Shown one piece after another: positions 21,216 through 24,896 of a DNA stretch of 64,000 bases. Both the position numbers and the translations under genes were made by a program. Source of the stretch: Selenomonadaceae bacterium (lineage in GTDB: Bacteria; Vulcanimicrobiota; Xenobia; Xenobiales; JADMJV01); NCBI GenBank assembly GCA_037189585.1, contig JBBCJA010000018.1, positions 887 to 64,886 on the forward strand, given 5' to 3'. A model generated the notes under the pieces. That model was not told where the DNA came from, did no database searches, and worked only from the letters and a program-made list of their open reading frames with translations. Numbering within the stretch: the stretch's first letter is position 1; each line of letters starts with the position of its first letter.

Positions 21216-21351
21216 GAAGCGGCGGTCTCGCTAGGAGATTCCGGAGGCCTCGCTGGCTGTCGAAGAGCGCTCCCGCTCCGTTAAGGGTGGGCTCTTCGAG
21301 AGCCAACCCGCCTGACCGGAGGTACGGGTGCAAATCCCGTCCGCTTCACCA
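21216..21351 (+). ncRNA. tRNA-like structured RNA element A (candidate Y-RNA-like / tRNA mimic) with encoded CCA
   Basis: 7-bp acceptor GAAGCGG/CCGCTTC, then A-CCA. D-arm-like GTCTC-GCTAGG-GAGAT. T-arm ACGGG-TGCAAAT-CCCGT. The anticodon arm is replaced by a ~23-bp imperfect helix (GGCTGTCGAAGAGC/GCTCTTCGAGAGCC closed by TCCGG-AGGC/GCCT-CCGGA). Confidence 0.45.
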
Positions 21352-21382
21352 TCTCATCTGAGTTCTTTCAAGGAGAAAACTC

Positions 21383-21583
21383 ATGTTGCATCTACGATTC
21401 GAAGGTCGCTCTTACGATATCCCGTCAGAGCAACTACATCTGTCCCAGGCCATCACCGACCACCAGATCCTCGATCGGGTGGCCCGTCACCTCGACGTCG
21501 CGCCGGAGCGACTGCGCCACTACGTGGTCGACCGGCGTCCGAGCGGTGTGGTGATGGTTCGACCCGAGGCCGTCTACGGCTAA
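21383..21583 (+). CDS. 66-aa protein ending in Gly (candidate beta-grasp/Ubl-like?)
   Basis: Strong RBS AGGAGaaaactcATG. ThiS-sized (66 aa). C-terminal ...VYG*. Confidence 0.4.
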   Translation: MLHLRFEGRSYDIPSEQLHLSQAITDHQILDRVARHLDVAPERLRHYVVDRRPSGVVMVRPEAVYG

Positions 21584-21625
21584 ATCGCCCTAAAAATTTG
21601 GTTCGTCTCGAACGCGACCCAACCT

Positions 21626-21715
21626 GAAAAGCTTACATACTAGCTCATCGGTAGAGCGCTCCACACCTAACGGAACGGTTGCGGGTTCGATTCCCGCGTG
21701 TAATCAAAGCTTTTC
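21626..21715 (+). ncRNA. tRNA-like structured RNA element B (candidate Y-RNA-like) closed by a long terminal stem
   Basis: Canonical D-arm TAGCTCATCGGTAGAGC and T-arm GCGGG-TTCGATT-CCCGC. Degenerate anticodon arm. Ends pair as AAAAGCTT-ACAT / GTGT-(AATC)-AAGCTTTT. Confidence 0.4.
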
Positions 21716-21877
21716 TAACTCGCGCGTTCGAAACGAATCTCTAAAGTTGTTGGTCGTCGCGACCTCATCGTGAGAACTTACACACGGATTCCATCCACTT
21801 GATTGAAGAGCAAGTCACTTGTGTTCTCCAAACTTTCGCGAACGACCACTTTATTCCAAGAAAGGAGGGTGTCCGTC

Positions 21878-23341
21878 ATGCGCACCAGCGAACAAGATCT
21901 CCGCGTGGAGATCCTCAACTCCATCCTGACCACTCCCCACCGTCAACTTGAGGAAGTTGCCGGGGTGCATCAGGATATGCGTGAACTGGACCCTCTGTTC
22001 TACGGCCACCTGGCGGTCTGGTATCAGACCAACGGAGAGGTCCGAGATCACCAGGAAGTGTTCATCGCGTATCTCTTGACCAGTGAGCTCTCCGAGCACC
22101 GGGAAGCAGGCTTCGTGCTGTTGCAAAACTTGCCGCCCTACCAGGTGGCCCGCGTGGTTGACTGCGCGAAGCGACACTGCGCGCGTCTGCCTCGTTCGGC
22201 ACGAACGGCGGTAGTGGAATACTTGCGAGAGCGGGAAGCCGTTCCCGCCAAGTTCGATCGCGCGGCGCTACGCGCCCGGAAGGCGATGAAGAGCCTGTAC
22301 GCGGGCCTGCATATTCGCCCCAGCGCGCGGGCCAACGCCATCCTGTTCACCAATCAACCTCCGGAAGGCAGTTTGGCGGCGGTGGTCAAGGCTCTAGCGA
22401 AGGCTGATACGCCGCTCGAACAGGCTGAAATCATCGTGAAGTTCAAGCTCCCCTATCCGGTAGCCGTGGGCGCCCTGCGCACCTTAACGCCGCCGGTATT
22501 GGTGGCCTTGCTCAACGCGATGACTCCGGCCGAGACCATCAACAACTTGAAGTCGCTCAAGGCTCGAGGCGCCTTTGACCACCCCGAGGTGAAGGCGCTG
22601 GTCGAGGCCAAGTTAGCCGAAGCCAGGACCGATGGTCGCGTTTCGGCCTACAAGGCCAAGGTCGCGTGCCAGGCGGCCTCGGTGGACCAGGTGACCGCGA
22701 GCGCGTTGAATCAAGTGACCGAAAGCCGGCTGAAAGCTCGAGGCACGATCACTCGAAGCACCGCTATCTTGGTCGACAAGTCAGGTTCGATGGATTGCGC
22801 CATCGAGGTCGGCAAGCAGCTGGCCGCGATGGTCTGCGGTGTCTCGGAGCTGGCCCCCGTGGTCTACGCTTTCGACACCATGCCGTACGAGATCACAGCT
22901 AACGGCCGGGATCTGGCGGCCTGGGAGAGCGCCTTCCGTCACATCAAGGCTAACGGCGGTACCTCCGTGGGCGCGCCGGTGGCCGCGATGCAAAAGCAGG
23001 GTCAGAAGGTGGAGCAGATCATCATCGTCACCGACGAGGGTGAAAACCAGGCTCCGTACTTCACCCCCGCCTACCAGGCTTATTGCCAGGCCCTGACACT
23101 GGAACCCCACGTGGTCATCGTCAAGGTCGGCCAGGCCTGTGACTATACCGAAAAGCTCCTGAGAAAGGAGAAGATCGCCTATGACGTCTTCACCTTCGAC
23201 GGAGACTACTACAGCCTCCCGAACCTGATTCCGATGCTGACCCGGCCTTCGCGACTGGATCTCTTGCTCGACATCATGGCGACCCCGTTGCCTCGTCGCG
23301 CGAACCGAACCGTCGAGCTGACCGAAGCTGTCTCGGTCTAA
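21878..23341 (+). CDS. Ro60/Rsr-like protein: alpha-helical N-domain (TROVE-like?) plus C-terminal vWA domain with MIDAS
   Basis: GGAGG RBS before ATG 21878. v[16 protein letters not shown]...T...[10 protein letters not shown]. Size (~488 aa) and architecture match bacterial Ro sixty-related proteins. tRNA-like RNAs immediately upstream. Confidence 0.5.
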
Positions 23342-23342
23342 A

Positions 23343-23380
23343 CTTCAGTGGCGCTCGAGCCGTCTCGGGCGCCACTGAAG
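23343..23380 (+). promoter_or_regulatory. Perfect 12-bp inverted repeat hairpin immediately after the rsr-like stop (intra-operon attenuator/processing site?)
   Basis: CTTCAGTGGCGC-(14 nt)-GCGCCACTGAAG starting 2 nt after TAA. No T-run. Confidence 0.5.
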
Positions 23381-23428
23381 TCGGGTTCCGCGGAGCACTC
23401 TGACCTACCGCACGAAAGGAGCCCGAAA

Positions 23429-24256
23429 GTGCTCAATCTCATCCACAAGATAGCTCGGACTGAAGAAGCTCTCGGCAAGGATCTGATCCTGGCCCCGCAC
23501 CCCCTGGGCGGCAAGGTCCGCGTTCGGATCGACGGTCTGCTTCACGAGTTCGTCTCCGACCCGGCCGACTTCGAGGGTTGGGGTCTTTTCACCGCCGCCT
23601 CCGACCGTGATGCCAGAGTGAAAGAGGTGGCGAGCCTGTCCCAGATCTCGAACTACCTCGAGCGCTTGCCCGCCACCCGGATGGTCCTGGTCAGTCCGCG
23701 GAAGGGCAAGTGCTGGAAGGCCCTACCCGCCAACCGTGACGAGTTCGCTCGTCGCTTTCGGCGAAGCGGTCCGCAGGCGCTGCACCTCGTCGAGCGAGGC
23801 CGCGCCTTCGAGACGGTCATCGCGCGCTTTGACGGAGCCAACTTCTGGTACGACAAGGTCGATCGAAAGACCGACCCTACCCTTCCCAACAAGCTGGGCC
23901 GAGCGCTGCGAGCCTTCACCCCGGCCGAGGAGGTTCGCCTGCCGGGCCTGACCCCGGAGATGCGGGACGTGTATCGTCAGATCCACGACCCCAGCTCTCC
24001 CCAGGCCGTGGCCCGCTGCTCCGAAGCACGCCTGCGACGCGCCTTGGAGCAGGGCGGCGGCTTCCTGGAGTCGTTCACCGATTGTGGCGACTTTTGGAAC
24101 ACCCGCTGGACCACCGGCGATGGCGAGACTCACGTGTCGGCCATTGCCAAAAACGACCTGACCGTGGTCAGCGCTGGTATCTGTCTGTCCGGCGAGGACC
24201 AGAAGTTCGATCTGGCCTCTTTGGTGGGCGTGGTCGAAAGACAAGAGGAGTGGTGA
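23429..24256 (+). CDS. Hypothetical protein (275 aa), middle gene of the operon; GTG start with AAAGGAG RBS
   Basis: The ORF-table start at 23348 lies inside the hairpin, so it is trimmed to GTG 23429. No recognisable domain. Confidence 0.45.
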   Translation: MLNLIHKIARTEEALGKDLILAPHPLGGKVRVRIDGLLHEFVSDPADFEGWGLFTAASDRDARVKEVASLSQISNYLERLPATRMVLVSPRKGKCWKALPANRDEFARRFRRSGPQALHLVERGRAFETVIARFDGANFWYDKVDRKTDPTLPNKLGRALRAFTPAEEVRLPGLTPEMRDVYRQIHDPSSPQAVARCSEARLRRALEQGGGFLESFTDCGDFWNTRWTTGDGETHVSAIAKNDLTVVSAGICLSGEDQKFDLASLVGVVERQEEW

Positions 24257-24260
24257 CGCC

Positions 24261-24896
24261 ATGACGTCGACCTATCACGAAGAGCTGTATCGAACTTCGC
24301 AAGCCATGGCGCGCCTGCGCGACACCCGGGTGACCGTGTGTGGCGCGGGCGCTCTGGGTGCCAACCTGGTGGAGAGCCTGGCCCGCACGGGCTTCGCGCG
24401 ACTGAAGGTCATCGACCGCGACCGGGTGGAGGAGCGCAACCTTTCCACCCAGCCGTACCAGATGGACGACGTGGGCGGACACAAGGCTCTGGTCTTGTCT
24501 CATCTGGTCTATCGCGCGGTCGGCCTCGAGATGGAAGCGGCGCGCGCCGAATTGAACGGTCGTAACGTGGCCAAGCTGCTGGCCGGAGGCGACTGGCTGG
24601 TGGACTGCTTCGACAACAGCGCGGCCCGCGCCGCCGTCTCGGCCTATGCCCGTAGCACCGGCACACCGTGCCTGCACTCAGGACTTGCCAATGGCTACGC
24701 CGAGGTCATGTGGGACGAGGTCTACCGGGTTCCGGGTCCGGCCCAGGACGACGTCTGCGACTATCCTCTGGCCCGCAACCTGGTCACCCTGGCGGTCGCC
24801 GTCACCGCGGAGACTCTCATCACCGCCATCTTGACTGGGGAGCGGCGCAATCAGACCGTCACCCTGGCCGACCTCGACATTCAGCCCTACCAGTAA
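24261..24896 (+). CDS. ThiF/MoeB-family E1-like adenylyltransferase (minimal, no CxxC)
   Basis: Rossmann VCGAGALGANLVESLARTGFARLKVIDRDRVEERNLSTQ. DCFDNSAAR motif. TPCLHSG region. Confidence 0.75.
   Translation: MTSTYHEELYRTSQAMARLRDTRVTVCGAGALGANLVESLARTGFARLKVIDRDRVEERNLSTQPYQMDDVGGHKALVLSHLVYRAVGLEMEAARAELNGRNVAKLLAGGDWLVDCFDNSAARAAVSAYARSTGTPCLHSGLANGYAEVMWDEVYRVPGPAQDDVCDYPLARNLVTLAVAVTAETLITAILTGERRNQTVTLADLDIQPYQ

Follow-up and report, generated by a model that had tools for sequence, protein, structure and literature searches.

What role should be assigned to a locus in which a protein resembling the RNA-binding protein Ro60 is encoded next to a ThiF-type (E1-like) enzyme, a small glycine-terminated protein and a set of tRNA-like RNAs? 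Such a locus occupies 20.6-24.9 kb on the plus strand of a 64-kb stretch of DNA, referred to here as the window (contig JBBCJA010000018.1, positions 887 to 64,886, assembly GCA_037189585.1), from a bacterium deposited as a member of the Selenomonadaceae and placed in the Vulcanimicrobiota by GTDB. An initial annotation, made from the sequence alone, had listed three genes, two tRNA-like elements and a 66-aa open reading frame, and all of these features are present (Table 1). We propose, with middling confidence, that this cassette encodes a divergent ribonucleoprotein (RNP) system of the Ro60/Y RNA type that handles stress or damage to the translation machinery and is coupled to chemistry of the E1/ubiquitin-like protein (Ubl) type.

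The 487-aa product of the first large gene, called here the Ro-like protein, is predicted to consist of a ring of alpha-helical repeats followed by a C-terminal vWA domain with an intact metal ion-dependent adhesion site (MIDAS). This prediction comes from an AlphaFold2 model built on an alignment of 18 homologues (pLDDT 79), among which the MIDAS residues D300, S302, S304, T362 and D386 (DxSxS...T...D) are invariant. In a Foldseek search of the PDB, the top 11 matches of the model were all Ro60, Rsr or TROVE proteins, with alignments that cover the full length (E 1e-11 to 4e-9, TM 0.58-0.68). The structures matched (9nfa, 2nvo, 1yvp, 9kop and others) include D. radiodurans Rsr, Xenopus and human Ro60 and a phage TROVE protein, and the next matches were isolated vWA domains only (E > 3e-4, TM ~0.25). 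The sole hint at the level of sequence is phrog_850 ('RNA-binding protein'), which matches the vWA part with E 1.3e-7. We count the modelled Ro60 fold as established and, judging from the model, regard the protein as a remote relative of Ro60 and not as an orthologue. The Ro60/Rsr architecture proposed in the initial annotation is therefore upheld for the fold but not for the sequence: membership in the TROVE family by sequence was rejected, as Pfam, phmmer and a family profile were all negative.

The family of the Ro-like protein is large, with more than 2700 homologues at identities of 60-92%, and is conserved to an unusual degree. In a species-representative genome set its relatives were found in 471 stretches (~470 of 185,579 genomes), mostly from Cyanobacteria, with which the protein of the source bacterium shares 60-65% identity, and in some cases from Vulcanimicrobiota (the closest, 71%), Chthonomonadaceae, Polyangiales and Actinomycetota.

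Upstream of the Ro-like gene lies a family of RNAs that share constant ends, called handles here, and differ in the insert that the handles enclose, the cargo. The handle motifs were first exposed by comparing the window with the loci of Kovacikia (L001) and of a close metagenomic relative (L002; L numbers denote the fetched loci): a tRNA-like element is surrounded by constant sequences that read AAGCUUACAUACU (5') and AGCUUUYYNAACUUGCGCG (3'). For the family as a whole, the constant handles are AGCUUACAUAC (5') and AACUUGCGCG (3'), with a closing stem around the variable insert. A motif search identified 292 handle modules in 82 loci, usually two to eight per locus and clustered between the genes for the 66-aa and Ro-like proteins; for the 5' motif, 166 occurrences on the gene strand compare with a single one on the opposite strand. 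R1, a covariance model derived from the short modules, produced 263 matches at E <= 1e-3; none of them is on the opposite strand, and nearly all lie no more than 3 kb upstream. When R1 was run on the window, it found two sites only, modules M1 and M2, the next best site scoring 10 bits. M2 (39.9 bits) was part of the training alignment. M1 was not, and its match (34.9 bits, E ~1e-7) is far beyond chance. We count it as established that the handle-plus-cargo RNAs form one family, with two members in the window.

The outer parts of the two handles pair with each other and form the closing stem. In an alignment of 32 tRNA-type modules, 92.8% of the cells are paired and 14 pairs have changed on both sides, a level of pairing that was reached by none of 500 shuffles and approached by no slid register. 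Within the closing stem, three of eight pairs change on both sides in alignment A3, in which the D, anticodon and T arms covary too, and five of six pairs show compensatory changes in alignment A4 of the short modules; the closing stem of M2 retains its pairing through a compensatory change of G-C to A-U. The UACAUAC and AACUUGCGCG parts of the handles are constant and have no pairing partner, as would be expected of sites of protein contact or processing. Sequence entropy in the tRNA-type modules is highest in the anticodon arm, and the handles are nearly invariant.

With paired ends, tRNA-like D and T arms and a position on the same strand within ~4 kb of a Ro gene, these RNAs have the layout of Y RNAs and YrlA. 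The comparison supports, by analogy, the view that the handle RNAs are Y-RNA-like partners of the Ro-like protein. The elements had initially been described as Y-RNA-like, and the description fits their position (same strand, within 3 kb), their covarying terminal stem and their tRNA-like bodies; it does not extend to the Y_RNA and YrlA families of Rfam or to the motifs of those RNAs.

Both tRNA-like elements reported upstream of the trio could be recovered in the window, element A by folding and element B by its Rfam tRNA score. The 7-bp acceptor stem of element A (GAAGCGG/CCGCUUC) precedes ACCA. The element also has a D-like arm, a T arm whose variant loop GGGUGCAAAUCCC recurs in many cargos, and a long rod that replaces the anticodon arm. 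Its minimum free energy is -71.1 kcal/mol (z = -4.3), and none of 200 shuffles was as stable. The homologue in L002 is 89% identical at both ends and carries a different, longer rod (169 nt, z = -6.1); none was found in L003. Element A has no handles and is called by neither ARAGORN nor Rfam. Element B constitutes the body of M1, which is a degenerate tRNA-like structure with a 3-bp anticodon stem and the loop CACCUAA; it scores 33.8 bits with the Rfam tRNA model (gathering score 29) and is not called by ARAGORN. M2 aligns with the short modules that lie directly upstream of the Ro-like gene in most loci. In Kovacikia, a composite tRNA-like RNA was seen with a handle module nested inside it.

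The relatives display a wider range of cargos. The tRNA-like bodies (~100 nt) have a single common acceptor stem, which is the handle itself and contains an A-A mismatch, and most of them lack CCA; by ARAGORN they carry at least 27 types of anticodon, including CUA, UUA and UCA. Short hairpin modules (52-68 nt), the class to which M2 belongs, are found directly before the Ro-like start codon. A third class (183 nt), usually located immediately upstream of the 275-aa gene, comprises the sarcin-ricin loop and the L11/GTPase centre, a fourth (~160 nt) matches 23S positions 1916-1941 (H69-H71), and a fifth (123 nt, ...CUCCACCAAACAAAGGUGCGUAUCUGGAGGGAUACGCUGCAAGCCUGAGACCGAUAGCAGGC...) could be assigned to no rRNA, tRNA or Rfam family. 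Because the rRNA pieces are too short for the Rfam LSU model, the cargos were aligned directly to the E. coli rrnH operon and its rrlH gene, with shuffled cargos as the control. This yielded 59 rRNA-matching modules as opposed to 7 among the shuffled controls. The 183-nt cargo matches E. coli 23S rRNA at 2652-2665 (sarcin-ricin loop) in 14 of 14 positions and also at 1059-1088 (L11/GTPase-associated centre). In many cyanobacteria this module sits in the spacer before the 275-aa gene, where the window has a plain 12-bp hairpin. Judged by sequence, the cargos resemble tRNA and rRNA, and we count this resemblance as established.

Several other features of the cargos were recorded. The amber anticodon CUA is the commonest, accounting for 20 of ~95 ARAGORN calls (for example, L005 7521, L021 7177 and L029 7777), and the loop CUCUAAA of tRNA-type modules is retained on different, covarying stems. 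Many tRNA-type modules have the T loop GUGCRAHUC as opposed to the canonical GUUCRANUC. The 183-nt module unites a copy of the sarcin-ricin loop (AGUACGAGAGGAA) and a copy of the L11/GTPase-centre 58-mer in one RNA (L020 13281-13463, L016 5483-5664, L049 14649-14832 and ~30 other loci). The 123-nt class replaces the short module before the Ro-like gene in some cyanobacteria (L001 5816-5937, L014 9814-9936, L015 587-710 and L016 1827-1950).

The conservation of the gene set was assessed by tblastn of the four window proteins against the 82 fetched loci. The order 66-aa, Ro-like, 275-aa and ThiF genes on one strand was found in ~60 of 80 loci, mostly from cyanobacteria, and spans Cyanobacteria, Vulcanimicrobiota, Armatimonadota, Myxococcota and Actinomycetota. 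As little as 10 nt and as much as 6.5 kb separates the Ro-like gene from the 275-aa gene. The genes inserted there encode toxin-antitoxin systems, Tpt1/KptA, NADAR, RNase T-type exonucleases, AAA ATPases and HNH proteins; of these, Tpt1/KptA, NADAR and RNase T-type genes are recurrent neighbours of the 275-aa/ThiF pair. All four genes are also present, in the same order, in an uncultured 595-kb phage (LR756511.1). The phage locus (L084, 273741-299231) contains 17 tRNA genes in 25.5 kb, with a downstream array of 14, and ~15 modules with the altered handles AGCUUACAAAC ... AACUUGGACG, in which ACAAAC and UUGGAC have co-varied. Its cargos are of the same types as the bacterial ones, including an H69-like cargo. 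The phage handles are altered along with the protein, so handles and protein lineage change together. LR756511.1 was the only phage record with a Ro-like protein among 50,697 records, and no relatives came up in IMG/VR, which was scanned with both the family alignment and the phage protein. We count the conservation of the four-gene set across phyla and in a phage as established. The initial annotation had named the absence of a conserved neighbourhood as an outcome that would tell against it; the trio is instead kept across phyla and in a phage.

The three proteins encoded with the Ro-like protein provide the basis for the proposed E1/Ubl chemistry. All 73 orthologues of the 66-aa protein are 65-66 aa long, share an invariant N-terminal HIRFEGRS and have Gly directly before the stop codon; the C-terminus (RPEAVYG in the window) reads VYG in 72 of them and IYG in one. 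In almost all loci that include upstream flank, the gene precedes the Ro-like gene and has the same orientation. In Pfam, the 21 members tested matched only the Ubl region of USP7 (E 0.0078, below the cut-off). We presume that this protein is the substrate or carrier of the E1-like enzyme, a putative Ubl. The 275-aa protein represents an orphan family with N-terminal OB-like beta-barrels and, towards the C-terminus, a helix and a four-strand meander; the meander is followed by an invariant Cys252 in the motif SAGICLSG. The OB folds are IF1/uS17-like.

The 211-aa product of the last gene is confirmed as a minimal ThiF/MoeB-family adenylyltransferase, as the initial annotation had it, by its match to PF00899 (E = 2.6e-29, 102.5 bits versus a cut-off of 28.1), and it possesses the nucleotide loop GAGALG and the DCFDN motif with the catalytic Asp. 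It scores too low for any of the named NCBIfam subfamilies, among them ThiF, MoeB, TcdA, UbaA, PRTRC and Cap2; the best scores are 84.9 bits for PRK08644 ThiF (cut-off 159) and 41.7 bits for TcdA (cut-off 304). Of the RNP-linked Ubl/adenylation system that was also raised initially, two features are shown, namely that the C-terminal Gly is invariant and that the gene of the small protein is linked to that of the E1; the rest is inferred. Two known kinds of system were tried and rejected. A ParB-related/ThiF-related (PRTRC) cassette is not indicated, given a PRTRC_ThiF score of 46.9 bits versus the required 144.75 and no PRTRC A-F proteins found. Among known defence systems, PADLOC matched only the E1 half of E1-E2 models and returned nothing for the other three proteins.

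The regulatory sequences point to translational stress. In the interval 20550-25100 of the window, a single sigma-70-like promoter match was found, upstream of the cassette, and no other; this promoter-like site and the GTAG-type repeats that follow it are conserved in L002 and L003. In cyanobacterial loci, the TrcR operator TGTAGTAT occurs at 0.39/kb in the 4 kb upstream of the Ro-like gene versus 0.06/kb elsewhere (6.5x) and is present in 44 of 54 loci, typically in tandem, with the copies overlapping the -10 box and a TTGACA -35 box preceding them. TrcR represses the trn tRNA-array operon, rtcB and an HNH gene, whose promoters have this same operator architecture, and induction follows exposure to ribosome-targeting antibiotics (PMC8421152, PMC10272220). 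Based on this shared layout, the window promoter with its GTAG repeats may be a counterpart of the cyanobacterial TrcR-operator promoters, a link to TrcR that we infer. Arrays of 10-33 tRNA genes directly adjoin 15 of the 82 loci, and ~65 have kept handle RNAs and have no array. The gene upstream of the Kovacikia array (L001 1-32) matches the Pfam family 'Alr0857'. Anabaena alr0857, asr0855 and the HNH gene alr0856 lie beside trcR and are de-repressed in a trcR deletion mutant, and a link to tRNA arrays in other species has been reported for the hypothetical gene all4315 (PMC10272220).

Taken as a Ro60/Y-RNA-type system, the cassette might work as follows. The Ro-like ring would bind the constant handles in the way that Ro60 engages the stem of a Y RNA, and the cargo would serve as a bait or adaptor for proteins that act on tRNA anticodon loops or on the copied rRNA sites; candidates are ribotoxins, anticodon nucleases, modification or repair enzymes and translation factors. 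Anticodon arms of tRNAs and these rRNA centres are what anticodon nucleases, toxins of the VapC/MazF type and ribotoxins of the sarcin/ricin type classically attack, and where translational GTPases bind. The E1-like enzyme would adenylate the C-terminal Gly of the 66-aa protein, which would then be passed on, perhaps with Cys252 of the 275-aa protein as intermediary, to a target located on the particle or close to it. Such a transfer could mark or neutralise a factor caught by the bait or could signal that the bait has been damaged. Expression would be tied to translational stress, in cyanobacteria through TrcR-type operators and in the vicinity of spare tRNA arrays and RNA-end-processing enzymes.

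A more specific version of this proposal, which we consider doubtful, is a surveillance device in which the ring holds out a library of decoys of the RNA sites that toxins attack most often (anticodon loops, sarcin-ricin loop, GTPase centre and H69-H71) and in which their engagement triggers signalling of a ubiquitin-like kind, for immunity or repair. A phage, plasmid or competitor would supply a nuclease or a modifying toxin that engages or cuts a decoy, whereupon the E1-like enzyme would link the 66-aa protein, via the Cys-containing 275-aa protein, either to the intruder or to an effector of the host. For the huge phage, such a device would be a means of shielding its own translation from host defences.

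A number of results weigh against an RNP system with E1/Ubl coupling. The evidence for every component comes from sequence analysis and structure prediction. Pfam at E <= 0.1 yielded only weak vWA matches for the Ro-like protein and no TROVE domain (PF05731), and neither phmmer nor hmmsearch with the 18-homologue profile matched a Ro60 chain among all PDB sequences. A search of Rfam 15 (E <= 10) over 20600-21900 of the window and over L001, L002 and L021 returned tRNA only and no Y_RNA, YrlA or LSU. The Ro-binding motif of Y RNA and YrlA, a bulged helix with GNCGAAN0-1G / GGUCCGA, is absent, the constant motifs being AGCUUACAUAC and AACUUGCGCG. The profile of the 66-aa family found nothing significant among PDB sequences, and hhalign gave no alignment with ThiS; with ubiquitin, the beta2-alpha1 region was aligned as expected, without significance (E 0.077). 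The 275-aa protein has no detectable similarity to E2 enzymes, and the ThiF protein has NLSTQ in place of the canonical NLxRQ, so that the Arg is replaced. The 275-aa/ThiF pair is absent within 10 kb in ~15 of 80 loci, and in at least one genome, that of Capilliphycus, it is located elsewhere, preceded by genes for Tpt1, an RNase T-type protein and a GNAT protein. Finally, the window RNAs are the plainest of the family, with a degenerate tRNA-like body and none of the rRNA mimics, which leaves the relatives as the main support for the bait idea.

For the step that activates the terminal Gly, the main alternative is a sulfur relay feeding RNA thiolation, in which the ThiF and 66-aa proteins would form a pair of the ThiS/MoaD/TtuB type with a terminal-Gly thiocarboxylate, and the 275-aa protein would be an RNA-binding transferase that thiolates the tRNA- or rRNA-like RNAs, or cellular tRNAs brought by the Ro-like particle. 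In NCBIfam, the E1-like enzyme is indeed matched best by ThiF-type sulfur-carrier adenylyltransferases, the 66-aa protein with its invariant terminal Gly has the size of ThiS and TtuB, the 275-aa protein combines OB-like domains with one invariant Cys, and the context is wholly RNA-centred; moreover, Thermus TtuB/TtuC and eukaryotic Urm1/Uba4 feed tRNA thiolation. We nevertheless rate this relay as unlikely. The 66-aa protein ends in YG and known carriers in GG, all scores of the E1-like enzyme are far under the subfamily cut-offs, the enzyme has no C-terminal rhodanese or CxxC domain, and the locus contains no conserved rhodanese, cysteine desulfurase or PP-loop/Fe-S thiolase. The cassette could also be an ordinary Rsr/Y-RNA quality-control system with a tethered exoribonuclease, the ThiF, 275-aa and 66-aa proteins being neighbours with separate jobs. 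This would account for the Ro60 fold, the same-strand tRNA-like RNAs a few kb away, as for YrlA (PMC4201824), the RNase T-type exonuclease genes in some loci and the predicted stress-linked regulation. It is made improbable by the 66-aa gene, which in almost every locus has its place among the RNAs that precede the Ro-like gene, and by the 275-aa/ThiF pair, which follows in ~60 of 80 loci and in the phage despite the variable insert; this synteny weakens the case for a chance neighbour. The rRNA-mimic cargos and the presence of 2-8 RNAs per locus have no counterpart in described Rsr systems, and no RtcB or RtcA was found in the loci whose genes were read.

The RNAs could, on the other hand, be tRNA genes and decayed fragments of a spreading tRNA-array island, kept as spare parts or as a mobile element, with the handles as processing or recombination signals. 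Fifteen loci do lie beside long tRNA arrays, which spread horizontally (PMC8421152), the variable inserts include HNH endonuclease and toxin-antitoxin genes, and copies exist on plasmids and in a phage. Yet most loci (~65/82) carry handle RNAs with no array, the rRNA pieces are precisely functional loops and not random fragments, and the tRNA-type modules share one mismatched acceptor stem and mostly lack CCA, and so cannot serve as a decoding set. Compensatory changes preserve the closing stem, and the handles change with the protein lineage in the phage. Covariation, strand bias, the uniform acceptor stem and the co-variation of handles and protein together weaken any reading of the RNAs as junk, and we consider the island origin highly improbable.

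The layout of the cassette in the window, together with nearby features, is given in Table 1. The initial inventory is correct but for one item: the gap between the Ro-like and 275-aa genes measures 87 nt and not 5-7 nt. The 275-aa and ThiF genes are 4 nt apart. The reported length of 275 aa for the second protein agrees with the GTG start chosen here; its reading frame is open from 23348. The GC content of the window gives no sign of recent horizontal transfer.

Table 1. Coordinates of the cassette and of neighbouring features in the window
Feature	Position	Strand	Remarks
tRNA-Pro gene	5537-5611	+	anticodon AGG; 61.3 bits
Candidate promoter	20657-20685	+	TTGACA-17-TACATT
Structured RNA candidate, ~255 nt	20692-20947	+	directly 3' of promoter-like site; folding z = -3.65
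GTAG-type repeats	20694-20730	+	GTAGAGTAATAC, GTAGGAAA, TGTAGTCC; 3' of promoter-like site
Intrinsic terminator	20901-20947	+	15-bp stem, then T run; end of structured RNA candidate
GC-rich hairpins	21031-21169	+	CCUCCGGGCG...CGCGGCCCGGAGG and GGGGUGUCCAGG...CCUGGACACCC; between terminator and element A
tRNA-like element A	21216-21350	+	by folding: acceptor stem, ACCA, T arm, long rod
66-aa protein gene	21383-21583	+	AAGGAG ribosome-binding site; product ends ...AVYG*
Handle module M1	21621-21732	+	5' handle GAAAAGCUUACAUACU, 3' handle AAGCUUUUCUAACUCGCGCG
tRNA-like element B, body of M1	21634-21703	+	Rfam tRNA match
Handle module M2, short-cargo class	21766-21846	+	GAGAACUUACACAC ... GUUCUCCAAACUUUCGCG; 5' leader of Ro-like gene
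Ro60-like gene, 487 aa	21878-23341	+	likely ATG start at 21878, AGGAGG upstream
Perfect 12-bp hairpin	23343-23380	+	CUUCAGUGGCGC / GCGCCACUGAAG; read from sequence; inside the 87-nt spacer
275-aa protein gene	23429-24256	+	GTG start at 23429, set by homologues and AAGGAG site
ThiF gene, 211 aa	24261-24896	+	PF00899; 4 nt past the 275-aa stop
Peptidase_U32 + DUF3656 gene	~24970-27511	+	3' of ThiF; syntenic in L002 (9066-11621)
774-aa protein gene	27527-29851	-	two prepilin-like segments

Some of these neighbouring features are shared with close relatives. The structured RNA candidate that follows the promoter-like site ends in a strong intrinsic terminator, matches no Rfam family and is kept only in the two closest relatives, L002 and L003. 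Both GC-rich hairpins are likewise conserved and common to L002 and L003 only. The gene 3' of ThiF encodes a Peptidase_U32 + DUF3656 protein, an architecture that we take to be that of RlhA, the 23S rRNA C2501 hydroxylase; it may be a further rRNA-directed enzyme beside the cassette, or its position may be a coincidence. The 774-aa protein contains two prepilin-like segments (GQLTAC(E/K)SN(L/Q)KN(L/I)GTALEMYSTDWSGAYP), the first central and the second close to the C-terminus, and this repeat is an internal duplication of a type IV pilin-like/DUF1559-type module. The sole canonical tRNA gene of the window is for proline with the anticodon AGG; A34 proline anticodons are uncommon among bacteria.

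Ro60 and its Y RNAs are conserved from bacteria to humans, and how Y RNA modules choose their partners is poorly understood. The combination of a constant handle with interchangeable cargos, namely tRNAs and the most toxin-prone sites of the ribosome, appears to make the modular principle of Y RNAs explicit. If our proposal is correct, the Ro60 superfamily would gain more than 2700 proteins that are invisible to sequence searches, an RNA-surveillance particle would be linked to E1/Ubl-type chemistry, and the RNAs would be, to our knowledge, the first natural ones to mimic the sarcin-ricin loop and the GTPase centre. It would also provide a function for hypothetical genes beside the stress-induced tRNA arrays of cyanobacteria and for part of the translation-related gene load of huge phages, and would point to a new means of monitoring or protecting the translation machinery, used by cells and by a giant phage. 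The handles could possibly serve as a portable scaffold for the display of RNA baits.

An E1-like partner of a Ro60-type module was not recognised as described when the locus was first annotated, and a literature search, which included the handle sequences, likewise found no description of the partner or of the cassette, although it may have been mentioned in passing elsewhere. Without precedent known to us are the interchangeable cargos on constant handles, the natural mimics of rRNA centres and the partnership with an E1-like enzyme and a Gly-terminated protein.

The closest known relative is the Rsr/Y RNA system with YrlA, found in Deinococcus, Salmonella, Mycobacterium and mycobacteriophages (PMC4201824). 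Both systems feature a helical-repeat ring with a vWA/MIDAS domain and non-coding RNAs on the same strand within a few kb, with paired 5' and 3' ends and a tRNA-like interior that has D and T arms; both have links to RNA repair and stress genes, and some phages carry either. In contrast to Rsr, the window protein has no detectable sequence similarity to TROVE proteins, and its partners are the E1-like enzyme and the 66-aa and 275-aa proteins, whereas Rsr is accompanied by RtcB, RtcA and PNPase. The RNAs differ as well: there are 2-8 per locus (~15 in the phage) and not 1-2, the handle motifs are UACAUAC and AACUUGCGCG and not the GNCGAAN0-1G of YrlA, the handles extend the acceptor stem of the tRNA-like body, the anticodon arm is diversified, and some cargos copy 23S rRNA sites.

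With E1/Ubl systems (the sulfur carriers ThiF-ThiS, MoeB-MoaD and TtuC-TtuB, as well as the conjugation systems Bil, CBASS Cap2 and 6E/6A-MBL) the cassette shares a ThiF-fold enzyme and a small protein whose invariant C-terminal Gly is where adenylation would be expected, and its third conserved protein, with an invariant Cys, could accept a thioester. The enzyme is, however, minimal (211 aa) and under every subfamily cut-off, the small protein terminates in YG as opposed to GG, and no JAB/MPN peptidase, recognisable E2 (UBC) domain or rhodanese is encoded. The gene for the small protein is parted from that of the E1 by the Ro-like gene and sits among non-coding RNAs. We know of no E1/Ubl system that is built around an RNA-binding ring and RNA mimics.

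Finally, the cassette is related to the cyanobacterial trn arrays and the TrcR regulon by direct adjacency in 15 of 82 loci, by the same promoter architecture and by the enrichment of RNA-processing genes nearby, and both spread horizontally (PMC8421152, PMC10272220). In those reports on tRNA arrays the neighbouring genes are shown as hypothetical proteins, and a Ro-like protein, handle RNAs, rRNA mimics and an E1 pair are not among what they describe (PMC8421152, PMC10272220). Unlike the arrays, the cassette extends beyond the cyanobacteria, and it also occurs with no array beside it, as it does in the window.

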